From positions 1 through 64,000 of the IMG/VR virus record IMGVR_UViG_3300025266_000004: a stretch of DNA of 64,000 nt, one strand, 5' to 3'. This document shows, in pieces, positions 1 through 19,391 of the stretch. Position numbers and translations under genes: made by a program. This stretch comes from a virus. Under the pieces are notes generated by a model, which worked only from the letters and a program-made list of their open reading frames with translations, did not search any database and was not told the origin of the DNA. Within the stretch, counting starts at the first letter, position 1. The number at the start of each line of letters is the position of its first letter.

Positions 1-1
1 T

Positions 2-3000
2 AGTGAAGATATAGGTGAATTAAGTTATGATAATTATAATGACTTTGTAAAGAGTAATACATCTACTAATTTACTATCTTTTGATTTAGGTAACGGTAAT
101 TTTGCTTATACTATTCAACCTGTAATAGAAACAAGTATTGGAGGTATATCTCAAGTAGTTAAAGATACACCAATTAAAGAGACTGCTAAAGTTGAGAAGA
201 AACCTACTACACAATTAGCATCTGATGATGCTATGTTAGGTGAGGATTTTAGTCCTAGTCAATTGAATTTATTTGAAGACGATAGTAATAATAAATTTAA
301 TGAAAAAAATATATTTACAGTAACACCAAAACAAAGTGCTGATAAAAAAGCAAAAAGTAAAGCTAAAATATCGAATAAATTTATTGGATTTGCAGACGGT
401 ATAACTGGAAGTAGTACCAAATTGTATACTGAACAAGCTGGTAAATACGCAAATACAGGTAATTATAATAATAAAGATGTAATATTTATTTCAATAGGAG
501 GGAGAAGAGGTCGAACTGATATTAGAAAAATACAACAACAAAAAACAATAAAGGAAACGATAAAAGCATTAGAACTTGGTGCTACTGTTTTAACTGATAA
601 TAAAGATTATACAAATATATCAACATACAATGAAGGAGAAAAATGGTTAAAAAGAGTTTTAGAGTCTAAAAAATACAGTTATAATGAAATTGTCGTTGAC
701 GGTAATAAAATAGGTACATGGACTAAATCTATAAATACTACAATTGGTTATAAAATTAATTACAAAGCTTTACAACAAGAGATAGAAGAAACTGTACTAA
801 TTAAAGGTTTTACAGCTTCTAAACAATCTATTTTAGTTGATGCTATTGCTTATGATATTAATGAACAAGTTATTAATAGCGGAAAATTACAACAAAGTCA
901 AGTTTTTAACAACTGGTTGACATACTTTAAAGAACAAAGAAGTGTATTCTCTGAACAAGGGAGAGATAAAGTAGTTGCTGAGTTTGATAAAATTATTGAT
1001 AGTTTTGATAGTATTAAACTATTTACTTTAAAGAAGGTAGGTAAGATTAATGGTATTCAAATTAAAGCAGATACTACTGTAGATGGATTACGTGATTTAG
1101 AAACACACTTAGAAAAGACTAACTTCAACGATGAAGCTACATTACAATTAGACTCTAAAGATACTGTAAGTGTTAAATTAAAGAGATTCTTTAGTGGTGT
1201 CAACGAATTAGACGAAAATGGTAAAGCAATTAAGCCTTATATGGGTCTTAAGAAATACGTACCATTTGATGTTGTATATAATGAAGTATCAGCTTTACTA
1301 GCTAATACACCTGCTGATTTTGGTTCAATGGTTGACATACTTGAACAGTATACTCAATCTAAGCCTTATTTAGAATCTCTAATAGCTAAGTTACAAAATA
1401 CCGAACAACAAACTAAAGACGAGTTCGTTGTTGCTATGTCGAAGCATAAAGTAGACATGGTTTACTTACTATGGTCTAAAGATGGTAAAACTGGTAATTA
1501 TAATATGATTACTCAAAATAGTAACTCTAATGATATAGCTACAGCTGTAGCAGACAATTGGTATGAAGGTTTAAAATCTAGCAAATATGTAACTAAAAAT
1601 AGTGATAATGAATTAGTTTTAAGTGCTGATATATCTAATGTAATTGAGAAACTAAAGAAATTCTCAAAAGATGAACCAAAGATCGATGAATTAGGTGACT
1701 TTTTAAAGAGTATAGGTATAGATATTGACCCTAGAACTTTGAATGATTTAAAAACTAACGGATTAAGAAGTAGAGGTAAACGTTTAGAGTATAAGCAACT
1801 ATTTAATACAGCTAATGGTGTATTTAATATTATGTTGAACAACTTAGAAAAGACTAAACAATCTAATTTAGTAGATAACAATCCTTTTAAAGATACATCT
1901 ATTAAATCTCTTGCAATTGCAGAAGCTAAATACAACACCAAAGAGTTTAGTAACTCGTTCAAGAATGGTGAAGGTAATACTATATATTCATTTAGTAATA
2001 ACAAGTACTTTGTAGATAGAATTAGAGAGTTAAAAACTAATAATAAACTGCAGAAAGATTTACTTAGTTTATCATATAATGGTAAAAGTGAGTGGTTACA
2101 AGATTTAACAAGTAGAGAAGATAATCTATTTAAGAGGACTTTTAACTACTTCTACTTAGATAGTATTAAGGAATTAGGAAGTACTCAGAAAGGTAAGAAA
2201 TTATCTAATATGTCTGATACTGAACAAGAGATAACTAAACTAGGTTTATTTTGGAATAGAAATACTTCTGTTAAAGAGAAAGGTATCGACAAAAGAATAG
2301 TTAGAATGTTCTATCCAACAATGTCAGATAAGACAACAATGGTTGGTTTAACAACTGTAGCTTACAATACTAAACTAGCTTTAAATGGAGATGTACATAA
2401 AGATACTATTAATAAAGTATACAATTCACTTATAGTACCTGAGATTTCAAGAATTATTAAGTTCCAAGAGGAAGTCAAATCTACTGGTATTAAAGGTTAC
2501 GATAAAGGTGCTAATATAGTATATTCTATTCCTGAGATTAATAATTCTTCTGTATTCAATGAAGATGGAGAGATTGATTTTGATGTACTATCTAATCCTA
2601 CTAAGATTAAAGAATTAAAAGACATAGTAGAACAACATATTGATACATTAACAGAAAATAAATTAAAGTACTGGCAAGAAGTAGGTATTAATACTAAAGA
2701 TTTTATTGATACTAACTATAAGAAATTCGCTACTGAACAAGTTGGTGAACAGAATATGCTAAAATTCTCTGCAACTGATTTTATAGTAAATACATTACTA
2801 ACTAATCAAAATGCTTTTCAATTGTTTATTGGTGATCCTGCTTTGTTCTATAAATCAAAGTCTTCTAATCCTATTAAGAAAGTAGAAGATACATTTGAAA
2901 ATATAGGTAAACGTTTAGCTAGTCAAATAGCACCTGGGATGGATCTTTCTGATAGTGAGAATGATACATACAAACAAGGATTTATTGATGATTACATATC

Positions 3001-6000
3001 TGATTCTAAATTCTTAGATGAGTATAGTAAGGTACTTAGTGAGAACGATTTAAAGGAATACAAAGGTATCGAAGGTACTGATGCACAAGAGTTTACTACT
3101 GTTGCTGAACATCTTTATGTAATGCAAAAATTAGGTAAATTAACTGACAAGCAAATTGACTCTATACAAGATAGAGCTTTAAAAGGTACATTATCAGAAG
3201 AAGAACTAGGTTTAATATTCCAACCTATGAAACCTGTATTTGTAGGTCAACACATGGATAAAGATAATGATGTACAACGTATGTTATATATTAAGTCTTC
3301 TAGTTTTCCACTAGTACCTCAATTGACTAAAGGTTTGGAGATTGACAAATTACGTGTAGCAATGGAACACCCAACTAAAGGAGTTGATAGAGTTTCATTT
3401 AGCACAGCTAATAAAGTTGGTGATTTCGCTAAACCTACTACAGTTTTTGATACTGATGGTAATGTAGTTGCTGATTTAGATTTATCGTCTACTACTTTAA
3501 AACTAGAAAGAAAGTATTTCAAGATACAACAAGAAGTACCTTATAAAGCTAGTAAAGAGAAGATTAATGATGGTTCTCAACAAAGAAAGTTATTGTTTGC
3601 TAATATACTAGATGTCGAAGGTGTCAAAGAACTTAAAGCTGAGTATGAGGAAACATATAGACAATTATATGAGAACGATTACAAGGACTTAATACAGGAA
3701 TTAGATGTTCAACCTGATGGTTCTTTTGATAGATTTCAGTTACATGATGTACTAATCAAAGAAGCAGAAGATAGAAACTATAGTATAAATGATATACAAT
3801 CATTGAAAATAGATGAGAAAGGACACTTTGTATATCCACTTGCTTTTAATAATTCTGCATCTAAGTTTGAAGCTTTGCTAACATCTATTGTTGATAACAG
3901 AGTTAGAAAGAAGAAATTCAGAGGTAATTCTTATGTCTTAGGTACAGAAGAAGGATTCAAGTTTGCTAATAGTGTAGAAGAAACTAATTTAAATGCTTCA
4001 TCTATTGTATATACTAAAGATTGGACAGGTGAATTAAGACCTCAACGCTCTGAAACAGTAGACGGTAAAAAAGTAGTACAACCTGCTGAGATATTAATAC
4101 CTTTTAAATTCAGAGATAAGAATGGTAAATTACTAAACGCTAAAGACTTTGTAAATGCTGACGGAACATTAGATACAACTAAGTTAGATGAAGATATACT
4201 TAAGACTTTCGGGTTCAGAATACCGACACAAGGTTTAAATAGTATGTCATATATGAAGGTAGTTGGTTTCCTACCTAAATCAGCAGGTGATTTAATCATT
4301 GCACCTAGAGAATTTACTATTCAAATGGGTAGTGATTTTGATGTTGATAAACTATACTCATATATGTATAATACTGTTGAGTATAATGGTAATATTAGAG
4401 TTATAAATGATAAGTTAGTACAAGAGATTAAAGCTGATTTTGATGTTGAGAATTTAGATGAGTTGAAAGCTGAGTTTAATAAACAGGAACTTAAAGATGC
4501 TATTAAAGAGTATGGTGTAATTATTGAAAAAGCACAAATTGACTTTGATAATGGTATAGATAACGAACAGACTGGTGAACAACTAGAAGCTTTGTATGAT
4601 AAATTACAAGATAGTAAAGAGCTTAAAATGCTTGCTAAGTACGACCTCGATACTGTAAATACGATTAATTCTATTATTACAGGCAAGTACGCCTTACAGA
4701 ACAAGCTACTTGATATACATTTCGATATATTAGCTAATCCTGATAAGAGAATACAAAGTCAGATACTAGAACCTCTAGGATTTGGTACTCTTAAAGACGA
4801 TGCGGCTAAGATTGATGGATATTTAAAAGAGGATAAGATATTTAGTCCTTTATCAGATGAGTATCAAAAGATGAAATATATTAACGCAACTGCTGGTAAA
4901 GCAGGTGTAGGTGTATTTAGTATGGATAGTGTTTTTAATGCTTTATTACAAGGTGTAACAGAAGGTGTAGAATTAGTAGATATTAAAGGTAAAGCCATAT
5001 CTATTAAATTTGGTAAACATACTTCTAATGCTTTATCTGATAGTAAATCTGTTAAGGGTACAAGATATAAATCACAAGTTATTGCGGCTTATCAATCTGC
5101 TGCTGTAGATAACGAGAAAGAACAAATCTTAGACAAGTTAAATATCAACTCTCACACATTTGATGTAATTGCTATACTGAATCAGGTTGGATTTGAGGAA
5201 GATGTTGTTACAGCACTCATTAATCAACCTATTATTAGAGAGTATGTAAAACAAGTTATTAAAGCTAATGACATTACTAGTGGGAATATTAGTAATGTAG
5301 AGAGTTTTGTATATGATGAATTACGTAAACTATATAAATCTAATGTATACAAGTTTGATACACATAGTAATTTAGCTGATAAGAGTGCTAATGATATGTT
5401 AGAGAATATTAAGAATGTTCAAAACACATTATCGTATAATAATATACAATTAGCTGTTTTAGATAAGTTTTTATCACTTAAAGGTAAAGGTCTACAACTA
5501 AAAGAAATACAAAGTACAATCAATAGTGATAGTGCAGGTCTAAGTAAGTCTTTAATAGAGACACAAGCTAAACAAAGTTCTATTTTAAGTCTATATGGTA
5601 ATAAAGGTTTTTCAAATATTGAAAAACTTATTGGTGACTATAAGAGTGAAGCTGAGTTGAATGATCTTTCTGAGGAAGAGCAAGAGAAGTATTCACATTA
5701 TGCTGGATTAACGTACATTAAACCAAGTACTATTAATGGTTATGTAGCTGTATATGGACTAGCTTTAAATAACAAGATGTGGAGTAATGAATTTCATTAC
5801 CACAAAACAAATGTTAATAAAGCTTTTGATACTATAGTTAAACTTACTGGTAAAGAAGATGTATCTGTATCACAACAAAATACTCTAAAACAAGAGGTAT
5901 GGGGTAATATTAAGTCATATTTATTTACATCTCCTGAGAGTAACTTGTATAATAAAGATGTTACACAGTTACGTAACGAGTTATTGTTTGATAATGAAAC

Positions 6001-9000
6001 TAATGAATCACTAGCAACTAAGATTAAAGACTTACAAGGTTCTTCTATAGGTGTTAAGAATGCTTTTTTAAATAAGTTATCAACTAATATACAGAAAGGA
6101 CAAAAACCTTCTTTAGTTACATTCAATGCTAGTACTGGTGAGAACTTTGACGAGACTAATATATATGCTGCTTTTGTTGAACTATTAGTTAATGATAGAA
6201 AAATCAATGAAACTCTTACTACTAGAGAGCTTGCTGAGGACTTAATTAGATACCAATTTTTAACAGGTGGTTTACAACAAGCTAAACAGTTTATTAAGTA
6301 TATTCCTGTAGCATATTTAAACGAGATTGGTTTTTCTAAGTATTTAGATACCTCAATTGAAGGTTTAGATGCTGGATTTGTTAGACAATTCGTGCAAAAC
6401 AATGCAGGTAAAGCACCTAGACTGACAGAAGATATTTATGGTAGTGATGTTAGTAAGCTTGAGAAGTTTACTGTACCTACTGAGAGTATTGCTAAATTTA
6501 GTGATGCACTTGGTAATCTTTTACCTTACATATCTGTATATAATGGGTCTGCTGAATCTGGTTATAGTTTATATGAGAATGACGGTAATGGTACTTATCA
6601 TAAGATTGATACTTTAGGTAGTACTGATTTCAAAGAGTATAACATTAATAGTACATATGCTACTTCTACAATCAAATCTAATAACACTAATACTAAACTT
6701 GAAAGACCTACTTATACTAAGTCTACACCTGTTATCGAAGAATCTGAAATATTAAATTCTTATGGTATTAGTTTTACTACTAGTGAGACAGAACGTACAA
6801 GAAATTTTTTAACAAACGTTAAGAATAATAGTAATAACAAATTGTACAAGGTGTTAGCAGGTAAAATGTTAGACAACATTGATAAAACTAATACACCTTT
6901 AGTACTTGATAAAACTATTAATACAGATGGTAAACATTTAGACGGTACAGTATTCATTAATCCTAATAGAATTAAATCTACTGAACAACTAGAGAAGGTT
7001 TTACTACATGAATTAGTCCACGCATTTACTGTAAAAGGTTTAGAAGGTGGTAGTAGAAGTGCTGTAAGAATCAAAGGTTTATTCAATGAGTTTAAAGACA
7101 GTTTAAGTAAAGAAGAATTACAAACCGTATTAACTAAATTAGGTAAAATAAGAAAAGGTGAAAATATTACTTTCTCTCAAAATGAATTAGATGTTATATA
7201 CGGTGGTGTTAACGTTAAAGAGTTTGTAGCTTTAGTAATGACTTCAAAAGATATGCAGAAGTTGTTAAACAAAACTATGTATCTTAAAGATAAGAACTTC
7301 TTATTAGAACTTATAGATAGAATAGTTGAGGTGCTAAATACACTAGGACTTAAAAAGAGTTCAGATTTAAAGTTTGCTATACATGATATATTTGATTTAA
7401 TAGATTCTGTTGAAGCTACGAGTGAAGACTTTTTACCTAGTCAAGCTAGTACTTTTGAACTACAGATGAAGTTAGGTGTAATGAATAAGGATGGTAGTCA
7501 TGTGAAATATGATAATGTAAATGTTAGTAAATTGAAGAAAGAATTTGCCGATAAACTACCTAAAGGTTATACTATAAAAACACATAAAGTTGAGAACAAA
7601 ACTGTATTTTACGTTCAGCCGTTAATAGAAGAATATAGCGTCACAGTGGATGAAGACACCAACAAAGGAAGATATGGTAAATTTGGGAAACTAGTAAGGG
7701 AAACTGATAGTAGAATATCTTACATCAAATCGACTATTAGTAAAGCTAAACAAAGTGGTGATTTCAAAACTGCTATTGATCAGGAAGCGAGACTTGAAGA
7801 AGTTGAAAGTGATTTAGAGAGATTACTAGATGCAACTAAGTTAGAAGATATTGCTTTTTACGCTGAAAAAGATATCGCTGAGATAGGTGGTATATTAGAG
7901 AATCCAAATGCTACAGCTGAGAATTTAGATAAGGCTGAAAAGTTGATTCATATATGGCAAAAAGGTATTGATTTGTTCTTTTCTAAGGAAGAGAAAACAA
8001 GTGATATACTAGTAGATGAATTTGCTAAGTATCAAGTTAAAGCTGATAGACTAGGTGACAGACTAGCTAATAAACAAAATGAGGTAGCAAGGAAATTGAT
8101 TACTAGATTGACTGGTAAAGATATTAGTATTGCAGAAGCTTTTAAGGAGTTTAAAGATGTCAACGGTTTAACGTCTAGAACCCTCGATATCTCCCATGCT
8201 GACAATATTCTATTACAGGCTATTTGGAAAAATGTAAAATTAGCGAATAACGAAGCTAGACTTGAGACTGAAAAAGTTGTTAAGTCTGTAGACGAATTGA
8301 TTAGTAACGCTGATAGTTCTCTAGGTAAGGGTAGAGATAAGTATAAAATCTTTAAACAACTTACTAAAGGTGGTGAATGGACTGGTGATTTAGTTCACAG
8401 GTTCTCTAAAGAGTATTTCGATGAGAAAAGTACTAAGCTAAATAAAGCTAATAGAGTTAATACAAAAGCTGGTTGGAATAGTTACTTCAAATGGAGAAAA
8501 GAGAATGAGTTAATATTCGATGTTAGAATGTTATTTCCTGATACTGATTTATATACTACAACTTTACCTCAAAAAGTGACTGATAATCATATTAAAGAGT
8601 TAAAAGGTAATTTAGGTGAAAAGGGATATAAGAATTTCTATTCTAAGTTAAGTAAGAAATTAGAGCAATTTAAGATTCTAAGAGAACTTGAACAAGATAG
8701 AATTGAGTTAATGAACTTAGAACCTAGAGAGCAGGAGAAACAACTTAAGTTATGGGATTATAAAAATTCACCTTATTACGCTAGTGAAAGTTTCGCTACA
8801 GGAAAAGGATTAATAATTGATAAGAAGTTAATCAACTCTAAAGGTGCTGAACATACAATTGTAGTACCTAAAAAGATAGATAGTAAAGGTAATACAACAA
8901 AATGGTATGATTCTAGTTTTGAACAGATAGAAGATAATGACGCTTTATCTAATTTATATGATTATATGTTAGATACTTTTAATACGTTAAATACTATTCT

Positions 9001-11008
9001 ACCTGATAATCAAAAAAGAAGAATTAGAGAGAACACTGTACCTGAGATTAAGAAGAGTATTATTGAAGCTTTTTCAGATAATGGTATCAAAGGTGGTTTA
9101 GGTTCATGGTATAACAAGTTAATTCAAGATATATCAGTTAATGAACTAAGTGATACAACTTATGCAGAGAAAGATGCTGTAACTGGTGAAGTTAAGAAAC
9201 AACTTAAAGTTAAACACATTGTAGATAATACAGAGAAGTTTAAGGAGTTAATGAAGAGGGGTAGAATAGAGTTTGAGTTAGCTAACAACAAGAAACCTAA
9301 TATTGACGATATACATAAGATAAGAGACAATGTTAATAAGGAGTTATTAAAGGAGAAGTCATTTGATTTAGGTGTTATTATTAAAGCTTACAGTGGTGCT
9401 GTTTTAGCTTACAAACATAAATCTGTAGTTGAATCTGAATTAAAGCTTGTTAATAGTATTTTATCTAATGCTAAAGAGACTGAGTTTAATGCACAAGGAG
9501 GGAAACTTAAAACACCAGATGGTACACTAGCTAAAAAATCACAAGCTGATTCATACGTTAATGTCAAGGCAATGCTCAAACATTATACTGATAACTTCTA
9601 TGATGTAGGTAAGAAACTAGAAGGTGTTAGTGGTAAGAAGAGTTATACACCTCAACAGAAGAAAGAGAAGAAGAACATTGAACAACTGTTAGCTGAAAAT
9701 GAAGTAGCTTTTACTGAGAATAAGATAGATGAAAAGAAACGTGACTTAAATAAGAGTACACTTACTGAACAACTAGATAATTTAGGTTCTAATAAAGTAG
9801 CTTCTAAAATAGGTGATAAAGCTTTACAATATGTCCAACTTAAGGGTATGGCATATAATGTTATTAGTGGTTTTTCTAATATGGCTTTCGGTTTTGTTGA
9901 TAATATAACAGCTGCTGCTGATGGTAGGCTTTATAGTGGTAAAGATTACCGTAAAGGTTTTGGTATGGTACTACGTAGTATAGGAGGTAAATCAGAAGAT
10001 GCTAAGAAGATTACAAATCTAATGAAACATTTAGACGTATTAAAGGACGCATCGGATGAACTTTTCGAATCGTCTTCTAAGTCTGTTTTACAGAAAAGAA
10101 TGAAGCATTTAGCACCCTATGAAGTACAGAAACGTACAGAATACATAAATCAAGCACCTATTATGATTGCTATGTTAAATAGTAATAAAGTAGAAGGTAA
10201 AGAAACAACTTTATGGGAGTCTCTAAATGAAGATGGCTCAATCAAAGAAGGTAGTGGTTTAACTAAGAAACAACTTGATGATTTTAAAGTCAAATTAGAT
10301 CAAACGATTAAGATGCTTCACGGGAATTATGATACTGATTCAACTATAATGGGTAAAGCAACTATAACAGGCAGGGCTTTGATGCAGTTTAGAACATGGA
10401 TGTTTGAGGGTGCTCATAAGAGGTTCGGAGCTGAGAAGTTTGATAGTAATTTAGGTCTTACAAGAAAAGGTAGATACAGGAGTATATATGAAAATTTAGA
10501 TGTAAGTGCATTGATAACTACAAGTAAAGTACTACTTAAGAAACTTACTTTTAATACAGCTTTTAAGAATACTAAGTTTGAAGATAGATTTAATGAAGTT
10601 GATGCTGCTAATATGAAAGCTAACTTAACTGAGCTAATGATATACATGGGTCTATATGGAATGAGTATATTACTAAAGATGTCAATGGACGATGAAGATG
10701 AAAAGAATAACTTTATAGGTAATCATTTACTTAATCAAATGTTAAGACTTGAAACAGATATTACATTCTATACTAGTCCTGTTTCTTTTGAAGCCTTAAC
10801 TAAAAGTTCTGTACCTGCAATGTCATTGATAACAGATGTCGGACAATGGTTTGAAGCTACTGGTAAATTTGTAATTGGAGAAGATGAGATTAAATCAGGT
10901 GTTAATAGTGGTGATAGTAGATTACTAAGAGAGACATCACAAATGATCCCATTAGGTACACAAATCTATAGAATAAAAAGTGCAGGTAGTCAAATATTTG
11001 ATAAATAG
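2..11008 (+). CDS. Giant virion RNA polymerase polyprotein (crAss-like vRNAP, zincin domain, C-terminal helical cargo region); 5' partial
   Basis: The frame is open from position 2 (SEDIGELSYD...) into the ATG at 233. It contains FRIPTQ and MGSDFDVDK (DxDxD at 4334-4348), typical of crAss-like vRNAP, an HELVH zincin motif at 7007-7021, and a hydrophobic segment near the C-terminus. Confidence 0.92.
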   Translation, partial: SEDIGELSYDNYNDFVKSNTSTNLLSFDLGNGNFAYTIQPVIETSIGGISQVVKDTPIKETAKVEKKPTTQLASDDAMLGEDFSPSQLNLFEDDSNNKFNEKNIFTVTPKQSADKKAKSKAKISNKFIGFADGITGSSTKLYTEQAGKYANTGNYNNKDVIFISIGGRRGRTDIRKIQQQKTIKETIKALELGATVLTDNKDYTNISTYNEGEKWLKRVLESKKYSYNEIVVDGNKIGTWTKSINTTIGYKINYKALQQEIEETVLIKGFTASKQSILVDAIAYDINEQVINSGKLQQSQVFNNWLTYFKEQRSVFSEQGRDKVVAEFDKIIDSFDSIKLFTLKKVGKINGIQIKADTTVDGLRDLETHLEKTNFNDEATLQLDSKDTVSVKLKRFFSGVNELDENGKAIKPYMGLKKYVPFDVVYNEVSALLANTPADFGSMVDILEQYTQSKPYLESLIAKLQNTEQQTKDEFVVAMSKHKVDMVYLLWSKDGKTGNYNMITQNSNSNDIATAVADNWYEGLKSSKYVTKNSDNELVLSADISNVIEKLKKFSKDEPKIDELGDFLKSIGIDIDPRTLNDLKTNGLRSRGKRLEYKQLFNTANGVFNIMLNNLEKTKQSNLVDNNPFKDTSIKSLAIAEAKYNTKEFSNSFKNGEGNTIYSFSNNKYFVDRIRELKTNNKLQKDLLSLSYNGKSEWLQDLTSREDNLFKRTFNYFYLDSIKELGSTQKGKKLSNMSDTEQEITKLGLFWNRNTSVKEKGIDKRIVRMFYPTMSDKTTMVGLTTVAYNTKLALNGDVHKDTINKVYNSLIVPEISRIIKFQEEVKSTGIKGYDKGANIVYSIPEINNSSVFNEDGEIDFDVLSNPTKIKELKDIVEQHIDTLTENKLKYWQEVGINTKDFIDTNYKKFATEQVGEQNMLKFSATDFIVNTLLTNQNAFQLFIGDPALFYKSKSSNPIKKVEDTFENIGKRLASQIAPGMDLSDSENDTYKQGFIDDYISDSKFLDEYSKVLSENDLKEYKGIEGTDAQEFTTVAEHLYVMQKLGKLTDKQIDSIQDRALKGTLSEEELGLIFQPMKPVFVGQHMDKDNDVQRMLYIKSSSFPLVPQLTKGLEIDKLRVAMEHPTKGVDRVSFSTANKVGDFAKPTTVFDTDGNVVADLDLSSTTLKLERKYFKIQQEVPYKASKEKINDGSQQRKLLFANILDVEGVKELKAEYEETYRQLYENDYKDLIQELDVQPDGSFDRFQLHDVLIKEAEDRNYSINDIQSLKIDEKGHFVYPLAFNNSASKFEALLTSIVDNRVRKKKFRGNSYVLGTEEGFKFANSVEETNLNASSIVYTKDWTGELRPQRSETVDGKKVVQPAEILIPFKFRDKNGKLLNAKDFVNADGTLDTTKLDEDILKTFGFRIPTQGLNSMSYMKVVGFLPKSAGDLIIAPREFTIQMGSDFDVDKLYSYMYNTVEYNGNIRVINDKLVQEIKADFDVENLDELKAEFNKQELKDAIKEYGVIIEKAQIDFDNGIDNEQTGEQLEALYDKLQDSKELKMLAKYDLDTVNTINSIITGKYALQNKLLDIHFDILANPDKRIQSQILEPLGFGTLKDDAAKIDGYLKEDKIFSPLSDEYQKMKYINATAGKAGVGVFSMDSVFNALLQGVTEGVELVDIKGKAISIKFGKHTSNALSDSKSVKGTRYKSQVIAAYQSAAVDNEKEQILDKLNINSHTFDVIAILNQVGFEEDVVTALINQPIIREYVKQVIKANDITSGNISNVESFVYDELRKLYKSNVYKFDTHSNLADKSANDMLENIKNVQNTLSYNNIQLAVLDKFLSLKGKGLQLKEIQSTINSDSAGLSKSLIETQAKQSSILSLYGNKGFSNIEKLIGDYKSEAELNDLSEEEQEKYSHYAGLTYIKPSTINGYVAVYGLALNNKMWSNEFHYHKTNVNKAFDTIVKLTGKEDVSVSQQNTLKQEVWGNIKSYLFTSPESNLYNKDVTQLRNELLFDNETNESLATKIKDLQGSSIGVKNAFLNKLSTNIQKGQKPSLVTFNASTGENFDETNIYAAFVELLVNDRKINETLTTRELAEDLIRYQFLTGGLQQAKQFIKYIPVAYLNEIGFSKYLDTSIEGLDAGFVRQFVQNNAGKAPRLTEDIYGSDVSKLEKFTVPTESIAKFSDALGNLLPYISVYNGSAESGYSLYENDGNGTYHKIDTLGSTDFKEYNINSTYATSTIKSNNTNTKLERPTYTKSTPVIEESEILNSYGISFTTSETERTRNFLTNVKNNSNNKLYKVLAGKMLDNIDKTNTPLVLDKTINTDGKHLDGTVFINPNRIKSTEQLEKVLLHELVHAFTVKGLEGGSRSAVRIKGLFNEFKDSLSKEELQTVLTKLGKIRKGENITFSQNELDVIYGGVNVKEFVALVMTSKDMQKLLNKTMYLKDKNFLLELIDRIVEVLNTLGLKKSSDLKFAIHDIFDLIDSVEATSEDFLPSQASTFELQMKLGVMNKDGSHVKYDNVNVSKLKKEFADKLPKGYTIKTHKVENKTVFYVQPLIEEYSVTVDEDTNKGRYGKFGKLVRETDSRISYIKSTISKAKQSGDFKTAIDQEARLEEVESDLERLLDATKLEDIAFYAEKDIAEIGGILENPNATAENLDKAEKLIHIWQKGIDLFFSKEEKTSDILVDEFAKYQVKADRLGDRLANKQNEVARKLITRLTGKDISIAEAFKEFKDVNGLTSRTLDISHADNILLQAIWKNVKLANNEARLETEKVVKSVDELISNADSSLGKGRDKYKIFKQLTKGGEWTGDLVHRFSKEYFDEKSTKLNKANRVNTKAGWNSYFKWRKENELIFDVRMLFPDTDLYTTTLPQKVTDNHIKELKGNLGEKGYKNFYSKLSKKLEQFKILRELEQDRIELMNLEPREQEKQLKLWDYKNSPYYASESFATGKGLIIDKKLINSKGAEHTIVVPKKIDSKGNTTKWYDSSFEQIEDNDALSNLYDYMLDTFNTLNTILPDNQKRRIRENTVPEIKKSIIEAFSDNGIKGGLGSWYNKLIQDISVNELSDTTYAEKDAVTGEVKKQLKVKHIVDNTEKFKELMKRGRIEFELANNKKPNIDDIHKIRDNVNKELLKEKSFDLGVIIKAYSGAVLAYKHKSVVESELKLVNSILSNAKETEFNAQGGKLKTPDGTLAKKSQADSYVNVKAMLKHYTDNFYDVGKKLEGVSGKKSYTPQQKKEKKNIEQLLAENEVAFTENKIDEKKRDLNKSTLTEQLDNLGSNKVASKIGDKALQYVQLKGMAYNVISGFSNMAFGFVDNITAAADGRLYSGKDYRKGFGMVLRSIGGKSEDAKKITNLMKHLDVLKDASDELFESSSKSVLQKRMKHLAPYEVQKRTEYINQAPIMIAMLNSNKVEGKETTLWESLNEDGSIKEGSGLTKKQLDDFKVKLDQTIKMLHGNYDTDSTIMGKATITGRALMQFRTWMFEGAHKRFGAEKFDSNLGLTRKGRYRSIYENLDVSALITTSKVLLKKLTFNTAFKNTKFEDRFNEVDAANMKANLTELMIYMGLYGMSILLKMSMDDEDEKNNFIGNHLLNQMLRLETDITFYTSPVSFEALTKSSVPAMSLITDVGQWFEATGKFVIGEDEIKSGVNSGDSRLLRETSQMIPLGTQIYRIKSAGSQIFDK

Positions 11009-11030
11009 GATACTAAAACGTACAAGTAAA

Positions 11031-11067
11031 AAAAAGGGTAACGAATTATAAACTCGTTACCCTTTTT
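11031..11067. terminator. Bidirectional intrinsic terminator
   Basis: 14-bp inverted repeat AAAAAGGGTAACGA/TCGTTACCCTTTTT between convergent gene blocks. Confidence 0.9.
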
Positions 11068-11125
11068 ACTGCTTAAAATCACAATTACCACATTGTAATT
11101 TGTCTTATACTGAACAACAATACGT

Positions 11126-11521
11126 TTAATTTCCTGTACTCGATTCTAAAGAGGTTATATTATCCTTACAAATAGTACATATAGTAGCAAAAGGCTTATA
11201 CTGTGCATGGTTAGTCCCTGATATTAGTTTCTTACAATACACACCACCTTGTTTATTCAATAAATGAACAGTACCAAATTGAGGTGAAAACCTATAATAA
11301 TACTCATTATTTATCCTCTCATGTTTTCTTGACATAGGAGTATCTAATGTAGGTACATTATTTTTACCACTTCTTCTTAATATTTCAGATTTTACATCTA
11401 AAATTTCAGTAACTAGTTCACCTATTTCTATAGGTGTCAATTTACTAAGTATATGTGTATTGTTAGAAAATGTAAAATCTTCTAATCTTTCTAGTAGTTT
11501 AGCTTCTTGTTGTTCAGTCAT
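11126..11521 (-). CDS. Hypothetical protein, possible C-terminal Zn-binding motif
   Basis: 131-aa ORF in operon context, with H, C and CxxC residues near the C-terminus. Confidence 0.6.
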   Translation of the reverse strand: MTEQQEAKLLERLEDFTFSNNTHILSKLTPIEIGELVTEILDVKSEILRRSGKNNVPTLDTPMSRKHERINNEYYYRFSPQFGTVHLLNKQGGVYCKKLISGTNHAQYKPFATICTICKDNITSLESSTGN

Positions 11522-11526
11522 TTCAT

Positions 11527-11883
11527 TTATTTTTTAATTAAGCATATATCATTTACATCTATAACACTCATTGTATAACTCTTAATTGTTATTTGATAAA
11601 CAGGTTGTACTTGTGGGTGGATGAATACTTTGTCACCAACTTTTATCTCTGAGTTTTTACTTGCAAGTGTAGACATATTAATAACTGCAACACCTTCTGT
11701 TTGTAGTTTTTTAATTTGTGCTTTTTTAGCACTTTCTGCATCTAGTTCAATAACACTTTTGAGTATTCTAGGTACTACTACATTAATCAAGTTACCTTGT
11801 GGTAAATAGTCTTGAAATAATGCAATGATGTCTCTATCATTTAATATTTTGTCTTCTGCTCCAATAATTGTTTTGTTTTCCAT
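11527..11883 (-). CDS. GroES/Cpn10-like co-chaperonin
   Basis: 118 aa. The YLPQGNLINV, EIKVGDKVF and IDVNDICLI segments resemble GroES signatures. Confidence 0.6.
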   Translation of the reverse strand: MENKTIIGAEDKILNDRDIIALFQDYLPQGNLINVVVPRILKSVIELDAESAKKAQIKKLQTEGVAVINMSTLASKNSEIKVGDKVFIHPQVQPVYQITIKSYTMSVIDVNDICLIKK

Positions 11884-11903
11884 CTTTTATTTATTTTATT
11901 TGT

Positions 11904-12455
11904 TTATAATCCACTATATTTTATGCCCATTTTTTGACCCTTAATTGGAGGTACTAATTCAACTATCTCTCCACATTCTTCCCATATTAACTTAGGTAAC
12001 TGTTCTATTATCTCAGTTTTACCTGTTTTCAGTATCCCCATTGGTACTAAGTTCGACTTTGTAGGAATTAGAGTTTTCAAGAATGTTTCTCTCTCTTTTT
12101 TCAAAGCTTTTACAGATCTCTCAATACTATCTAATTCGTCCCAGTAAATATCATTACAGTCATCAAACTTAAAAAATGTATAAGTAGGTGCATGAGAAAC
12201 AGTTGCACCAAATATCCTTGTAGGTTTACCGTTCTCTAGATTTCTAAGTGTATCTTCTCGTATAGCTTCCTTCACTTCAGAGTCTTTTAAAACCTCTTCG
12301 GAAATCTTTGCCATCTTCTTAAGTATAATACCTGCTTTACACTCATCTATATCACCATCTATTATATTCTGTTTAATTAGTGCTACAGTCTCTTTTAGAT
12401 TTACAGGTTTATTTAAATCAAATATAGCTAATCCTTTGTCTTTTTCTTTACTCAT
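11904..12455 (-). CDS. Hypothetical phage protein
   Basis: 183-aa ORF in operon context. Confidence 0.7.
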   Translation of the reverse strand: MSKEKDKGLAIFDLNKPVNLKETVALIKQNIIDGDIDECKAGIILKKMAKISEEVLKDSEVKEAIREDTLRNLENGKPTRIFGATVSHAPTYTFFKFDDCNDIYWDELDSIERSVKALKKERETFLKTLIPTKSNLVPMGILKTGKTEIIEQLPKLIWEECGEIVELVPPIKGQKMGIKYSGL

Positions 12456-12459
12456 ATTA

Positions 12460-12621
12460 TTATCTTTTTATTTTTATAAATTGTCCTATATAATGTACTA
12501 CTCCACCTACAATAGCTACATCAAACCCTCTAGGTCTATATCCACTATTTACTAGACTTTTTACTTTCTTTTCATAGTTTACTACACTACTTTCTTTTAA
12601 TATTTTTACATCATGTTTCAT
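12460..12621 (-). CDS. Small hypothetical protein (53 aa, not in ORF track)
   Basis: MKHDVKILKESSVVNYEKKVKSLVNSGYRPRG... fills the gap between its neighbours exactly. Confidence 0.7.
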   Translation of the reverse strand: MKHDVKILKESSVVNYEKKVKSLVNSGYRPRGFDVAIVGGVVHYIGQFIKIKR

Positions 12622-12625
12622 AATT

Positions 12626-13276
12626 TTAAAATTTTATACCTTTAGTTAATTCGATATCTATATTATCTAGCATACCATTAGTGTTTATATTTTTGCCATA
12701 AAAACCACTACAACTGTCTATTTCTTCGAGTTCAAAATAAGGGTTATCGTCTATAACACTTTTTTCTTTATACACTTTTTTATACTCTAGTTTCTCAAAT
12801 AGTGTATAACCATAAACCTCTCCACTTAAATAAGTATTCCAAGTTTCAATTAAACCTTCTGCATAATACTTAGCTATTTCTTCGTCTGTTAAATCTTTAC
12901 ACTTTTCGTTACTTTGTCTTTGTAAATCAAAATCTAGTTCTTTTTTATTAACTATTACATAACCAGTTGAACTAACATCAAAATTAGAATGTGGATTATC
13001 TAACATTAAACGTACTCCGCTGTGTATATACGCATACACCGTAAATATATAAAAATTATCTAACTTTGACAAATCTAAATCATGGTCTAAAATAGTACCT
13101 GTTTTCTCATCTAAATAATCATATATATACTTAGGTGGAAATCCTTTTCTAGTTACTTGTAGACTACTGTGTTCATATACTAAAAATATATCAGTATTAC
13201 CATTAGTGTTAGGACTCTCTGCAAAGTGGTCTTGTGTTATTTTAATTATGTGGTTATTATTTAATTCGTATTTCAT
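12626..13276 (-). CDS. Hypothetical phage protein
   Basis: 216-aa ORF containing YAYIHSG and GEVYGY segments. Confidence 0.75.
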   Translation of the reverse strand: MKYELNNNHIIKITQDHFAESPNTNGNTDIFLVYEHSSLQVTRKGFPPKYIYDYLDEKTGTILDHDLDLSKLDNFYIFTVYAYIHSGVRLMLDNPHSNFDVSSTGYVIVNKKELDFDLQRQSNEKCKDLTDEEIAKYYAEGLIETWNTYLSGEVYGYTLFEKLEYKKVYKEKSVIDDNPYFELEEIDSCSGFYGKNINTNGMLDNIDIELTKGIKF

Positions 13277-13279
13277 AAT

Positions 13280-13582
13280 TTATTTATATTTTGTGTAAGT
13301 ACATCTGTACCTTTCGTTTTTACGTAAAATAGATTTTTCTCTATTATTAATACTTCTAATAATTTTATCTTTTGTGTGTAATGAAATGTCACCTGTCATA
13401 CTATTTGCTAAGTTAATCGCTATCTTCCATATAGTAACTAGATGTTCTTTATTAAAAGCAAAACCTTCATATCTATTACCAAATAAAATACAATAATCTT
13501 CTTTTACTTCTTTCTTATCTAGTGCTGTGTAACCATTTTGATATATGGTACAAACTTTTTTACACTCTTGCCAGTTTTTCAT
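13280..13582 (-). CDS. Hypothetical protein
   Basis: 100-aa ORF, tightly packed with neighbours. Confidence 0.6.
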   Translation of the reverse strand: MKNWQECKKVCTIYQNGYTALDKKEVKEDYCILFGNRYEGFAFNKEHLVTIWKIAINLANSMTGDISLHTKDKIIRSINNREKSILRKNERYRCTYTKYK

Positions 13583-13588
13583 AATTGT

Positions 13589-13984
13589 TTATTTTCTTTT
13601 ACTTCTCCCATCAGGTTTACCTCTATTTTCATCTATTCCAAATGTCGTAAAGTAGTACTGATAATTAAAGACAGTAATAGTATCATAGCTATTACAATTG
13701 TCTACTGTGTTACTGTCTTCTTTATCAATATCGTACTCTTTATATAATCTAACATAAGCCTTACCGTGTTTACCAACACCCATGTATTGCACTTTGTACT
13801 TCTTATTAATTATATAACCATCTAAATTATAGTCTCCATTTGTAGATTGAATACATTTACAAAACATAACTACAGAAGCAGTCATTTGATGTGGAAGTTT
13901 GAAAGTAGTTCCATTACTACTCTCAGTTAAACTTTCTTCTTTCTTTGTAGTATTCGTTACACTACTTTTAATTTTAAAATTCAT
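13589..13984 (-). CDS. Hypothetical protein with N-terminal FKIK motif
   Basis: 131 aa, starting MNFKIKSSVTNT. Confidence 0.65.
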   Translation of the reverse strand: MNFKIKSSVTNTTKKEESLTESSNGTTFKLPHQMTASVVMFCKCIQSTNGDYNLDGYIINKKYKVQYMGVGKHGKAYVRLYKEYDIDKEDSNTVDNCNSYDTITVFNYQYYFTTFGIDENRGKPDGRSKRK

Positions 13985-14406
13985 AAGACTAAAAATTGTT
14001 TTGTAAATTCTATTTGATCTTCTACAAACTTACCATTTCTTAAATAGTAAGCTGCTTGATATACTATCTCAATTCTTAAAAGTCTTTGTTCATAAGGTAA
14101 ATCCTTTAAATATTCACAATGTTTTTTGTAAGTTAAGTATTCACCTTTTAAACTAAAGTCATAATCATGTTTAAAATGTATATAATCATGCCAAATTCTA
14201 AAACACAAATTCAATGTCTTAGACTCGAATATGTTATTAGTCGAATTACCATCTAAATTAATCAGTATATTACCATTATTAAACATACCTTTTAAAAAAG
14301 CATAACTATAGTTTTTATTCACAAAAGATACTTTATAATTTTCAATTATCTTTATATAGTTATCTACTAGTACTTTCTCTAGTTTTTTACTTGCTATTTT
14401 ACTCAT
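13981..14406 (-). CDS. Hypothetical protein with HDxxH putative metal-binding motif
   Basis: FRIWHDYIH motif; short overlaps with both neighbours. Confidence 0.6.
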   Translation of the reverse strand: MSKIASKKLEKVLVDNYIKIIENYKVSFVNKNYSYAFLKGMFNNGNILINLDGNSTNNIFESKTLNLCFRIWHDYIHFKHDYDFSLKGEYLTYKKHCEYLKDLPYEQRLLRIEIVYQAAYYLRNGKFVEDQIEFTKQFLVL

Positions 14407-15616
14407 AATCTCTAATTGTTATACCTACAGCGTGAAATGGTAAAGATTTTGGTGCTTTCGTCCTTTCATAAAACTCTACAGTTAGCATTTTACCAATATA
14501 GTTTAATTTATTATCTAAGTACTCAGCTTTCTGCTCATGTGTACCCTCTGCAACAACTGTAAAGGTGTGTTCATTGATATTGTTTATACACTTAAACATA
14601 CCTAGATTTTCCTTCTTCTTCATAGGTATTACATCAAGTATTCTAAACTCTGCACTTTCCTTACGTTTAAGCTTAGTCATAGTAGAAGGTCTTCCACCAA
14701 ATTTATACGTAGCGTTCTCGTCTCTGAATATACCACCTTCAAAACCTTGGATAATCCAGTTGTTCGTACAAATTTGAGCACTCTCGTCACTTGGAATTAT
14801 AATAGTTGGAACTAAATTTACAGAAGGAAAACTAAACATCTCAAATACACCCCTTAAATTTGTTAATCTGTTCACTTGTTTAATCATTGGAACAGCTAAA
14901 TCAAATACCTCAAAAGTAACTAAAGCACTATTTAAATTTCTTTTTGTAACAGCAGATTTAATATCTGATAATATATAACCATGAATATATAATTCACCGT
15001 CTAGTATTATTTCCTTATTTGGATATGTAGAAATAAAATGTATAAATAGTGGTTTTAGTTCTTCTTCAATGTGTTCTAATACTGAGTAAACTAACCCACT
15101 TTTAGACTTTAAAACTACTTTATCATTTTCAAATATAGCAAAACATCTTACTCCATTTATCTTAGGTTGTCCATAACAAGGGAACTTAATTTTAGGTGTC
15201 TTTGTACCATCAGAATCAGTCTTATAATAAGGTTGAGCTCGCATTGGTTGCAGAGTACCTGATTTATCTGTATTGAACTTAGGTAATGTAGCATCTAGTA
15301 CAAATAGTAAATCATCCTCATTCTCAGGTACAGTTGTAATATTATGTTCACCAGTCGTTTTATAACCTGTAAGTTGTTTATGTCTCCATTTCGAGTTCAT
15401 TTCATTACAGGCTTGGACGAAAGGTGTAGTTTCATTACTTTTACCTATGTTCTTACCTATAAGTATAGATGATGATCTCTTAACAAGTTTACCACCTAAC
15501 AAACCATCTTCTGTAATAATTATACCTCTATTTAGCTCAGTGTCATTAATACATCTTGCTTTCCATACTTTAATTCTACCTTTACTATCTCTAGCATATA
15601 AATTTTCTAATGTCAT
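14399..15616 (-). CDS. lig: ATP-dependent DNA ligase
   Basis: KINGVR (motif I), LDGELY, FDL, EGGIFR and KLK motifs, plus a C-terminal OB-fold-like region. Confidence 0.93.
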   Translation of the reverse strand: MTLENLYARDSKGRIKVWKARCINDTELNRGIIITEDGLLGGKLVKRSSSILIGKNIGKSNETTPFVQACNEMNSKWRHKQLTGYKTTGEHNITTVPENEDDLLFVLDATLPKFNTDKSGTLQPMRAQPYYKTDSDGTKTPKIKFPCYGQPKINGVRCFAIFENDKVVLKSKSGLVYSVLEHIEEELKPLFIHFISTYPNKEIILDGELYIHGYILSDIKSAVTKRNLNSALVTFEVFDLAVPMIKQVNRLTNLRGVFEMFSFPSVNLVPTIIIPSDESAQICTNNWIIQGFEGGIFRDENATYKFGGRPSTMTKLKRKESAEFRILDVIPMKKKENLGMFKCINNINEHTFTVVAEGTHEQKAEYLDNKLNYIGKMLTVEFYERTKAPKSLPFHAVGITIRDYE

Positions 15617-15618
15617 AA

Positions 15619-16062
15619 TTATACTTTTAATATTAATAAATAAGGACTAGTAGTTTTCTTTATTACATCATTAAAAACACTAGTAGGTGTTCTAAATGCT
15701 TGATACATCATTGGCATACCACTAACAGGATGTGTATCACCTATCCATCTATCATCAGCTGCAACTGCATCAGTAACCCAAACTCCTGTATTCTGTTCTT
15801 CTTCTGTTAAAGGTGCTACAGCTTTAATATCTGTAGCTTCCATTGTATCAACGTGTCCAAACATTAATATATGTCTCATTGTTATATGATTTCTTCCTAA
15901 ATTAGGTACACCTTCAATCTCTTTATAGTTGTGTACTCCATTTACATTCTTTTCTACTAATTCTTTCAATGTTTCAATATCTTGTTCTTCAATCTCTAAA
16001 ACATAATTTTTTGTACCATTTGATTTTTTATAAACTAAATGGGTACTAATAATATTTATCAT
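15619..16062 (-). CDS. Hypothetical protein
   Basis: 147-aa ORF between ligase and primase. Confidence 0.65.
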   Translation of the reverse strand: MINIISTHLVYKKSNGTKNYVLEIEEQDIETLKELVEKNVNGVHNYKEIEGVPNLGRNHITMRHILMFGHVDTMEATDIKAVAPLTEEEQNTGVWVTDAVAADDRWIGDTHPVSGMPMMYQAFRTPTSVFNDVIKKTTSPYLLILKV

Positions 16063-17149
16063 AATCTTTATATTTAAGTCTTAATTCTTCTCTAGTATTA
16101 CTATAATACTCTTTCGTTTCATTAACTAAATTTAATACGTAATCTAATCCGTTGGCTTTTAGTAAATCTGTGTAATCCTTTTGTTTGTGTGGTAATTTGT
16201 TCTTGTGTACATCTTGTGTTATAAAAAGAGGTTGAATACCGTATTCTTCCTTTAGTTTTTTAGCCATTATCTTACCTGTTCTATCAAAGTCCATTAGACT
16301 GAATATAAAATCAAAATGTCTAGTAAGGTAATTATAATCTTCTCTAGCTAGTAAGTGTGTTTCTGAGGCTGGCGCAACAGCCTGTAATAAAGAAGTTGTA
16401 CGTATGGAGACTACATCTTTATAGGACTTCGTAACAATACAAACTTCACCACAAGTTAATTTACTCTTTCCCTGTAGTATAGTAGTATTAGTAACAAATC
16501 TTACTTTCTTTCTAAAAGGATAGTATACTTTAATCTCTCTAATACCATTTTCATCTAAACCAAAGTCATATACATAAGCAGGATTCTTAGGATTATATTC
16601 ATACCTTAGTATTCCATTTACATGTACAGTCTCCGCAGGATATATATCAAAAAACTTTAAAGCACCACTACCAACATAGTATTGATTCCAATAATCACTA
16701 TCTACTTTTTTCCACTCTCTTTTAGTGTACAATATAACAGTCTTTTTACTTACATTCTTTACAAAATCATCATCATAAAGTTTTATAGTCTTTTTAGTTA
16801 TTTTATTCTTGTACTTATGTAGGTTAAAATCAGAAGCTATTTGATCTAGTATAATACCAAATCCATTCTTAGAATTAGAATTAACTCTTAGCTGTCTTCC
16901 TACAAGGTCATAACAATCACCCCAAAAGTGACCATTCCAGTCTTTCGCTCTAAGTCTACTACCATTATATTTGAAACCAAATGTAGGTGTTTTATCAGGA
17001 CGTAAAGGACTTAGTATTAAATTACCTGTCATAACACAATCAGTAATAGTACCAATATCTAATTCTAGGTAATGTGCAAAAATCTCTTCTTGATTAAGAT
17101 TTTGCATTATGTAATCTTTAGTTAATTTAGGTAATATTCCATATCTCAT
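16046..17149 (-). CDS. DNA primase (crAss-like DnaG/TOPRIM)
   Basis: N-terminal SPLRPDKTPTF, plus TOPRIM-like TKSYKDV, DFDRTG and KDYTD. Confidence 0.85.
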   Translation of the reverse strand: MRYGILPKLTKDYIMQNLNQEEIFAHYLELDIGTITDCVMTGNLILSPLRPDKTPTFGFKYNGSRLRAKDWNGHFWGDCYDLVGRQLRVNSNSKNGFGIILDQIASDFNLHKYKNKITKKTIKLYDDDFVKNVSKKTVILYTKREWKKVDSDYWNQYYVGSGALKFFDIYPAETVHVNGILRYEYNPKNPAYVYDFGLDENGIREIKVYYPFRKKVRFVTNTTILQGKSKLTCGEVCIVTKSYKDVVSIRTTSLLQAVAPASETHLLAREDYNYLTRHFDFIFSLMDFDRTGKIMAKKLKEEYGIQPLFITQDVHKNKLPHKQKDYTDLLKANGLDYVLNLVNETKEYYSNTREELRLKYKDYDKYY

Positions 17150-17161
17150 ATATTATTACAT

Positions 17162-17192
17162 AAAAAAGGCAATTAATCTCTTAATTGCCTTT
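17162..17192 (-). terminator. Intrinsic terminator
   Basis: AAAGGCAATTAA-tctc-TTAATTGCCTTT hairpin with a U-run on the minus strand. Confidence 0.8.
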
Positions 17193-17213
17193 CGTTTAGT
17201 TGTTTACTTATTA

Positions 17214-17840: not shown

Positions 17841-17889
17841 ATTCTTTGTTTTTATATTATTTTTAACTATTATCTAACTACTTTAATGT

Positions 17890-17924
17890 AATAAAGGTGC
17901 TATTGTTATTATAGCACCTTTATT
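17890..17924 (-). terminator. Hairpin, probable terminator
   Basis: AATAAAGGTGCTA/TAGCACCTTTATT inverted repeat. Confidence 0.7.
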
Positions 17925-17942
17925 ATTATACAGAATCTTTAA

Positions 17943-18386: not shown

Positions 18387-18415
18387 AATTTTTAATTTTT
18401 AATTGTTATACTAAT

Positions 18416-19324: not shown

Positions 19325-19391
19325 TTTTTTATGATTTTATAATTAAACAGTAGTGTTTAGTTACTTTTAATTGCCATGTTTAAATCATACT

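Follow-up and report, generated by a model that had tools for sequence, protein, structure and literature searches.

No viruses are commoner in the human gut than the crAss-like phages, and it is not yet understood how podoviruses drive megadalton protein cargo through a narrow tail in the correct order. In Cellulophaga phage phi14:2 the cargo modules are divided among three genes, g067, g066 and g065 (1797, 2180 and 1421 aa), of which the second specifies the virion RNA polymerase (RNAP) and the third a zincin-bearing 'RNA polymerase associated protein'. For the fused 'huge polyprotein' forms of this cargo it has been proposed that the chain is cleaved and that the zincin might activate the RNAP (bioRxiv 10.1101/2020.03.07.982082); the available text of that preprint names no cleavage motif and does not mention cysteines. 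Here we describe such a fused gene in a 64,000-nucleotide stretch of viral DNA (positions 1 to 64,000 of IMG/VR record IMGVR_UViG_3300025266_000004, hereafter the window), where an open reading frame (ORF) at 2..11008 carries two near-identical heptapeptides, EDFSPSQ and EDFLPSQ, together with a degenerate third copy, EEYSVTV. Very probably these are seam peptides: short tags of the form acidic-aromatic-x-Pro, set in the flexible linkers that join the modules of the cargo polyprotein. The idea that such polyproteins are cleaved is already published, and the seam peptides are the new, testable detail.

Compared with phi14:2, the window has the same three-module order, a homologous DFDxD polymerase (E 1e-41), an HExxH motif after the polymerase, and the same position at the end of the virion module. 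It differs in having one ORF in place of three genes, a cassette at the first seam (J1) and a bracketed mini-domain at the second (J2, with flanks J2a and J2b), while the g066/g065 split of phi14:2 (J1.5) has no motif copy in the window. The nearest cultured relatives are the Flavobacterium psychrophilum phages Fpv3 and FpV4 (Fipvunavirus), with about 29% identity over aa 1018-2448, where 29 records cover at least 80% of the query. Like the window, they fuse the gp67-like, RNAP and zincin modules, in a 'structural protein' of 4287 aa followed by a 1596-aa protein; unlike the window, they are split at J2, in Fpv3 directly after the zincin and at about the position of the window's second heptapeptide, with a cysteine on both new ends, and they lack DF.P at J1. 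The window's alignments to them cover neither heptapeptide. PhicrAss001 has homologous RNAP-associated cargo, gp47, gp50 and gp49, which is kept inside the capsid and probably leaves it in a partly unfolded state; it differs from the window in using three genes, one of them on the opposite strand, and in bearing terminal cysteines, and the text available to us describes no linking of these proteins to one another (Bayfield et al. 2023, PMC10172136).

Two other systems can be set beside the window. Picornavirus 3C and potyvirus NIa polyproteins carry a short peptide repeated at module boundaries, in exposed linkers, that varies between lineages and is constant within a genome. The window has the same site pattern, but in those systems the proteases and cuts are demonstrated, whereas here both are proposed, and the carrier is a predicted ejected virion protein of a DNA phage. 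The virion RNAP of coliphage N4, gp50, is T7-like and of a different family from the window's. It too is a giant ejected polymerase followed by an HExxH domain and then a large helical C-terminal domain, according to the available account (PMC13434306).

The window is the first 64 kb of a contig of 81,336 bp (G+C 30%). Contig bases 1-117 recur at 79,607, after which the sequences part, so that the assembly must have circled a genome of about 79.6 kb into a second haplotype. The polyprotein ORF starts at contig position 75747, outside the window, and its full product would be some 4,880-4,960 aa; the second haplotype's version is in the database as P0002 (4882 aa), which is 100% identical to the window over aa 2250-2700. 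The ORF matches PHROG 16227 'virion structural protein' (E 4e-162) and is the last gene of the virion/structural module, after terminase, portal, major head protein and the CrAss_Ring_1 and CrAss_Ring_2 tail ring proteins. By its gene content the source genome is that of a crAss-like phage, and packaging and ejection of the polyprotein are predicted from gene context. The records of the Fipvunavirus phages do not place them in Crassvirales; the crAss-type ring proteins and RNAP argue for a Crassvirales kinship. The features of the ORF are as follows.

2..11008, + strand: virion cargo polyprotein gene, 3' 3,668 codons (5'-open ORF; PHROG 16227 match)
2..241, + strand: end of the gp67-like N-terminal module and acidic linker into seam J1, aa 1-80 (alignments to P0003, P0004, L001 and P0154)
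242..262, + strand: seam peptide J1, EDFSPSQ, aa 81-87 (translation; relatives' splits nearby)
263..760, + strand: strain-variable inserted cassette, aa 88-253, family not assigned (haplotype and relative comparison)
761..6700, + strand: gp66-like virion RNA polymerase module, aa 254 to about 2234 (homology to phi14:2 g066)
6842..7411, + strand: zincin-like domain, aa 2281-2470, with HELVH at 7007-7021 (invariant HExxH; AlphaFold2 (AF2) model residues 1-189)
7424..7444, + strand: seam peptide J2a, EDFLPSQ, aa 2475-2481 (translation; low-confidence coil between two helices)
7445..7627, + strand: mini-domain of 61 residues, aa 2482-2542, two helices and a beta-hairpin (AF2 residues 200-262, pLDDT 72-89)
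7628..7648, + strand: degenerate seam peptide J2b, EEYSVTV, aa 2543-2549 (motif pattern; second low-confidence coil)
7649..11005, + strand: C-terminal helical module, aa 2550-3668 (homology; AF2 pLDDT about 90 from model residue 279)

The original prediction took the ORF for a crAss-like virion RNAP joined to a zincin-type HExxH domain, and homology to gp66 and the invariance of the HExxH motif support that assignment. The polymerase module matches phi14:2 g066, annotated 'Catalytic RNA polymerase subunit', at E 1e-41 by tblastn over 59% of aa 1018-2448, and by blastp gp66 residues 228-1768 align with P0002 1579-3079 (23% identity, E 1e-58). The same query, aa 1018-2448, matches 146 phage records, mostly Crassvirales, and GSDFDVDKLY (aa 1443-1452; the catalytic, metal-binding DFDVD at 4334-4348) is invariant in P0002 and two close relatives, P0003 and P0004, and stands in the consensus of 17 sequences. 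The C-terminal helical module is homologous to separate proteins of 1,100-1,500 aa in split relatives and to the C-terminal part of phi14:2 gp65. The mini-domain bracketed by J2a and J2b is conserved in P0003, P0004 and a third close relative, L001. The cassette is a different matter: P0003 and the second haplotype, seen where the contig ends, lack it, P0004 has a DUF7831 domain in its place, searches of Pfam, PHROGs and the ESM Atlas gave no relative, and AF2 gives it no confident fold. Where the contig ends overlap (window 1-1730 against contig 79607-81336), the two haplotypes can be set side by side: in the window's a 166-aa cassette follows EDFSPSQ, and the second has DDFSPSP without the cassette, an extra insert of about 90 aa ahead of the motif, and another indel farther along. 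The stretch SQLNLF that follows the first copy suggested a sliding-clamp-binding site, a reading that was dropped because neither the second haplotype nor P0003 has SQLNLF.

EDFSPSQ (242-262) and EDFLPSQ (7424-7444) are confirmed in the frame of the ORF, and they do bracket the RNAP-zincin unit, both DFDVD and HELVH lying between them; the copy at 7628-7648 had been overlooked. That the codons of the two copies betray selection at the protein level is a weaker proposition. The codons do differ at two of the six shared residues (GAG/GAA and GAT/GAC), but this is too little to carry the argument, and the F, P, S and Q of both copies use the majority codons of the ORF. Here the possibility must be faced that the peptides share no function at all, J1 being an old, conserved acidic-DF[SA]P linker motif to which J2 bears a likeness by chance, composition or linker copying. 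The identical codons at the other four of six residues speak for it; against it, DNA identity stops at the heptapeptide borders, and in L001 the three motif copies differ in their Leu, Pro and Asp codons. Also in its favor, the number of repeats in the whole ORF equals the chance expectation: four 7-mer pairs of at least 6/7 identity, against 4.24 +/- 2.44 in shuffles, 56.5% of 200 of which reach four or more. Whole-ORF repeat statistics were accordingly rejected as the basis of the case, the heptapeptide pair alone not being beyond chance, and with the codon argument weak as well, the case rests on where the copies lie. When only the seams are compared (aa 40-130 against aa 2455-2565, windows drawn around the motifs by the analyst at seams known from homologue splits), the best 8-mer scores 31; composition-preserving shuffles give 21.0 +/- 2.8, and 4 in 1000 of them do as well. 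A post hoc pattern, E[ED][FY][SL].[ST], has three matches in the ORF (aa 81, 2475 and 2543), where 0.078 would be expected.

The location of the seams is given by relatives that divide the same cargo among several genes. A search with aa 2251-2850 against 1.84 billion representatives gave 192 matches at E <= 1e-3, the best 150 of which were used, and 165 sequences (151 representatives and 14 annotated coding sequences, CDS) were mapped onto P0002 with phmmer. Among the 92 homologues with a cysteine in their first 8 residues, 62 have their N-termini at P0002 3500-3799 (J2; the second heptapeptide is at 3689) and 13 at 1200-1499 (J1; the first is at 1437), with 8 at 3200-3499 (J1.5, as in phi14:2 gp65) and the remainder at 800-899 (2) and 2400-2999 (7). 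On this mapping each heptapeptide copy lies within tens of residues of one of the two most-used fission clusters. A match of split points to heptapeptides at the level of single residues was abandoned, the split J2 N-termini being too diverged to align; two residue mappings are plausible by eye, with the cysteine on the Pro of DFSP or on the residue before the Pro (CPNK). Moreover, a separate gp67-like protein (P0154) has EDFLP, then a 75-residue cassette, then ..KNCE. Since residue placement failed, and since this protein keeps the motif and the terminal cysteine 75 residues apart, we claim proximity only to within tens of residues. Among 8000 candidates scored, one protein was recovered as a short gp67-like piece ending at J1.

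The split pieces have recognizable ends. Upstream pieces finish in a conserved tail, P..[FL][IV][ST][DE].E[LV][DE].[FY]I[KR].C[KR]G, preceded by a hydrophobic-x-Pro element (NFVP, MFVP, IAP), and downstream pieces begin with C.Y.Y.GK or with a portable adaptor of about 35 residues, CPNKN..EWK.LV..VGE..AY, which is common to J1, J1.5 and J2. Near J1.5, within the otherwise variable stretch ahead of the zincin, RPTYTK (window 6704-6721) is kept in P0002, P0003 and P0004; phi14:2 splits g066 from g065 at about this place, and no copy of the heptapeptide is found there. The polyprotein of L001 is in two overlapping ORFs (5849-11890 and 11853-20474) whose break falls within the polymerase module, away from the seams, and neither new end at the break (11853-11890) has a cysteine; the break is probably a sequencing frameshift, or possibly a programmed one.

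It had been suggested that homologues be scanned for the heptapeptide at domain boundaries, and the outcome is mixed: peptides of the same class recur at the same seams, but the exact heptapeptide is confined to the nearest relatives. P0003, P0004 and L001, which are 51%, 49% and 46% identical, respectively, have GEFSPA, GEFGNF (followed by the DUF7831 cassette) and VDFLPD, respectively, at J1, then VDYMPNQ, GNYSPDN and TDYLPS at J2a, and NDYSPYG, GNYSVGDN and YYLPD at J2b. L001 contains exactly three [FY]LP[DS] in its 4,886 aa, one at each of J1, J2a and J2b. More widely, 36 fused relatives exceeding 4,000 aa have at J1 a stretch of acidic residues that closes with DF[SA]P, or else a looser hydrophobic-[SA]-P. 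Across 35 fused representatives [DEN][FYW].P occurs 0.174 times per 100 aa at J1 and 0.158 at J2, against 0.032-0.091 elsewhere, and a looser pattern 0.241 and 0.144 times at the seams, against 0.023-0.063. The motif class is enriched 3-6-fold around J1 and J2 relative to the rest of the chain. Linker composition contributes to this, and the inflation of motif density by acidic, Pro-rich linkers favors the account without a shared function.

A stricter comparison asks how well J1 and J2 match within one protein. We took the best 8-mer BLOSUM62 match between the two seams in each of the 35 full-length fused representatives. Against 200 equal-sized window pairs elsewhere in the same protein, 9 of 35 reach <=0.05 where 1.75 are expected; against 200 composition-preserving shuffles, 10 of 35 reach <=0.05 and 6 of 35 reach <=0.01, for a binomial figure of 6e-6, which overstates independence because the representatives are related. 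The pairs include TEDFSPLV/TEDFMPLV, EDLPAFVG/EDMPAFYG, EDSLDDTI/EDYLDDTI, AEVDPDVD/EEVDPDID and EDMSPKVD/EDLSPVVD, and two further fused proteins have SEDLP and ADLPL cores common to J1 and J2. In most fused relatives the private J2 peptide sits at the J2b position (P0002 about 3756-3775), and 10 of 14 lineage patterns, all written post hoc, occur exactly twice, at J1 and at P0002 about 3705-3775. Lineage-private repeats at the same seams are the pattern expected of sites read by one co-evolving factor. The 25 of 35 fused relatives that have no significant pair in the shuffle test speak for a coincidental likeness. Nonetheless, we consider it unlikely that the seam peptides share no function, for the shuffles preserve composition and still leave 10 of 35 proteins, and the window itself at 4 in 1000, and the private pairs differ between lineages, match within a protein and occur exactly twice.

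The predicted structure places the peptides outside the folded domains. In an AF2 model of aa 2281-2900 (50-row alignment, mean pLDDT 79.8), J2a (model residues 195-201) falls within a coil of pLDDT below 50 (190-202) and J2b within a second low-confidence coil (263-273), and these coils separate the zincin domain, the mini-domain and the helical C-terminal module. In a model of aa 1-500 (mean pLDDT 57.9), the first copy lies in an unstructured stretch (32-209, pLDDT below 50), the polymerase N-domain beginning at about residue 265 with pLDDT near 90. The proposed linker location thus holds firmly for the second copy and with weaker support for the first, where a thin alignment weakens the disorder call. 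Measured against self-processing polyproteins, then, the same peptide is found at module boundaries in linkers at J1, J2a and J2b, and lineage-private sites are found in 9-10 of the 35 fused representatives.

If the seam peptides are sites, what reads them? In the model we favor, the module order runs from the gp67-like part through the gp66 RNA polymerase and zincin and the mini-domain to the gp65-like C-terminal part, and the three copies would be read by one common, co-evolving factor, and our best guess is that this factor is the HELVH zincin within the polyprotein itself. Inside the virion the chain would remain intact; once it had threaded from the capsid into the cell, the zincin would cut the seams and so free three products from one another, namely the RNAP-zincin unit, the C-terminal module and the strain-variable cassette. 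That the zincin cuts the seams after delivery is a tentative proposal, to which we give somewhat less than an even chance. The H, E and H of HELVH (aa 2336-2340) are invariant in the alignment of P0002, P0003 and P0004, a homologous HExxH is present in phi14:2 gp65 and in Fpv3, and weak local Foldseek matches are to the zincins PprI (8slm, prob 0.84) and abylysin (4jiu, prob 0.98 over 65 columns). No other peptidase or head/prohead-protease family was found among the 32 ORFs scanned against Pfam and the 18 scanned against PHROGs, a set that does not include every ORF. The embedded HExxH domain is the only peptidase-like element found, and we regard it as a candidate, putative peptidase.

Several observations weigh against this proposal, in addition to the fused relatives without a significant pair and the relatedness of the representatives. 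The HExxH domain scores below the Pfam cut-offs (M76, 14.2 bits against 25.2; SprT-like, 13.7 against 25.6), and Foldseek finds nothing for the 620-residue model at E <= 1e-3. The zincin is retained where the genes are fully split, as in phi14:2 gp65, so polyprotein processing cannot be its only role. Distant fused relatives have other motifs at the J2a position, and a motif of the same class is kept near the C-terminus of separate pieces (EDFLP in P0154, NFVP in P0139, MFVP in L013), whose modules would need no cut to part them. The virion RNAP of N4 is carried as a single uncut chain. None of the present results contains a cut at the seams, and no report of cleavage products of such polyproteins was found in the literature searched. 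Finally, the cysteines to which we now turn imply selection for covalent continuity of the chain, which suits an uncut chain equally well.

Cysteine is missing altogether from the 3,668 residues of the window ORF and from P0002, P0003 and P0004 (4,804-5,266 residues); the other 63 ORFs of the genome have 159 in 18,059. Where the cargo is split, cysteines appear at the new ends, often as the only ones of the protein. In phi14:2, the sole cysteine of gp67 is its last residue and that of gp65 is residue 3, and gp66 carries a pair, at positions 3 and 2179 of 2180; Fpv3 has them at position 4286 of its 4287-aa first protein and at position 3 of the protein that follows. The same pattern is present in LMMB, cr111_1, Rudgehvirus, crAss001, DAC15, cr128_1 and cr4_1, and overall 11 of 11 annotated phages conform, three with caveats, as do the viral contigs L013 and L014. 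The IAS record contains X residues and its polymerase spans two CDS, in crAss001 gp50 and cr128 gp053 the C-terminal cysteine is set back from the end by 8-9 residues, and a few internal cysteines are present in several polymerases. For crAss002 gp33 (L004 6794-6900), the annotated start reads MVLDYS... and the first cysteine is residue 35, within an internal Met33-Ser-Cys35 that fits the rule; the true start is probably Met33 (MSCTPSN...) and the annotated one wrong, so that the rule can serve as a practical annotation aid. In the record of cr4_1 (L012), gp25 and gp27 have in-frame stops in their table-11 translations, which fits stop-codon recoding in that phage.

A census of the 151 representatives, 150 of which could be classified (P0151 has no phmmer domain), gives the same picture. 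Of the 165 cysteines in 368,322 residues, 91 are among the first 8 residues of a protein, 6 are among the last 10, and 68 are at other positions. None of the 36 proteins that share the polyprotein's own start has an N-terminal cysteine, against 90 of the 114 that begin internally (85 of 100 after restriction to Met-initiated proteins of 800 aa or more). Likewise, none of the 128 that share the polyprotein's end has a C-terminal cysteine, against 6 of the 22 that stop internally; most of the remaining 16 look like fragments. Among the full-length fused proteins, 28 of 35 lack cysteine and 7 have one. Along the split chain, the first protein has only a C-terminal cysteine, the middle one has both, and the last only an N-terminal one. 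Translational coupling is ruled out as the cause by crAss001 gp47, which is encoded on the strand opposite to gp50 and gp49 and yet ends in a lone cysteine; what the rule governs is therefore the protein, not the gene junction. Together these patterns suggest that the split cargo pieces are tethered head to tail by disulfides. Virions of crAss001 do have disulfides, in the tail and portal vertex, as described in the available text of PMC10172136. We found no statement of the terminal-cysteine rule in the literature searched, which included that paper and the gp66 preprint insofar as their texts were available, and as far as that search reaches the rule is new. Beside the polyprotein gene, the two ORFs immediately upstream, at contig 70625-72619 (664 aa) and 72624-75653 (1009 aa), have no cysteine, and the 1226-aa ORF that precedes them has 7; the two cysteine-free ORFs may encode further ejected cargo.

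The cysteine rule, as read from sequence, is neutral between cutting after delivery and a chain that is never cut, and speaks against cutting inside the capsid. The uncut alternative is that each seam peptide, with the short helix that follows it, acts as a connector or docking tag, holding the modules in register or binding a repeated site on the capsid or portal and so letting the cargo exit as a single ordered thread, while in split phages the C-terminal tail, the N-terminal adaptor and the disulfide do the same job. Besides the selection for continuity to which the cysteines point, this account draws on the motifs retained just upstream of the C-terminal cysteine in split pieces and on the adaptor that is shared by split N-termini at J1, J1.5 and J2, and private co-variation fits any co-evolving binding partner. 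It must contend, however, with identical peptides at two seams, which fit one reader better than mutual pairing, and with a fused chain that would have to work as a single 4,900-aa protein while relatives use separate proteins. On balance we find the connector account credible but rather improbable.

The other alternative is maturation in the capsid, whereby a head protease or the zincin would cut at the motifs during assembly and the virion would hold separate products. Maturation cleavage of internal proteins is common in tailed phages, and the repeated motifs and accessible linkers serve this account just as they serve cutting after delivery. If free pieces were acceptable in the virion, however, a lone cysteine on each split terminus would be needless, and the cysteines are there, at 90 of 114 internal starts against 0 of 36 true ones and in all 11 annotated phages, three with caveats. 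The original prediction had allowed for a head protease as the enzyme; no such family turned up in the 32 ORFs scanned against Pfam or the 18 scanned against PHROGs, and the terminal-cysteine pattern makes a cut by such an enzyme before ejection unlikely. We regard in-capsid maturation as very improbable.

Returning to cutting after delivery, a more general model can be imagined, although we hold it to be speculative and on the doubtful side. The cargo would be one covalent thread built to come apart on arrival, fused forms being cut by the zincin and split forms, joined by disulfides, being reduced in the cytoplasm. In this context, fusion plus protease and fission plus disulfide would be interchangeable solutions, and the seams would double as insertion points for effector cassettes. 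Fused relatives do have large inserts at the seams, often with a copy of the motif on both flanks; judged by eye these include Walker-A kinase-like and helicase-like stretches (in P0021, P0031, P0029, P0036 and P0050 such stretches occupy the place of the window's cassette), and P0005 carries precomputed helicase families. The seams seem to be sites where cassettes of accessory enzymes are swapped, which bears on host takeover and counter-defence.

Some further genes of the contig deserve mention. Just ahead of terminase, window 46339-46815 encodes a protein with a Tad2-like (Thoeris anti-defence 2) domain (Pfam E 1e-24), adjoined by an Amidase_3 endolysin at 46819-47448 (E 5e-20). In the tail gene block, ahead of the crAss ring proteins, contig 64027-64755 encodes a patatin-like phospholipase domain (Pfam E 1e-7).

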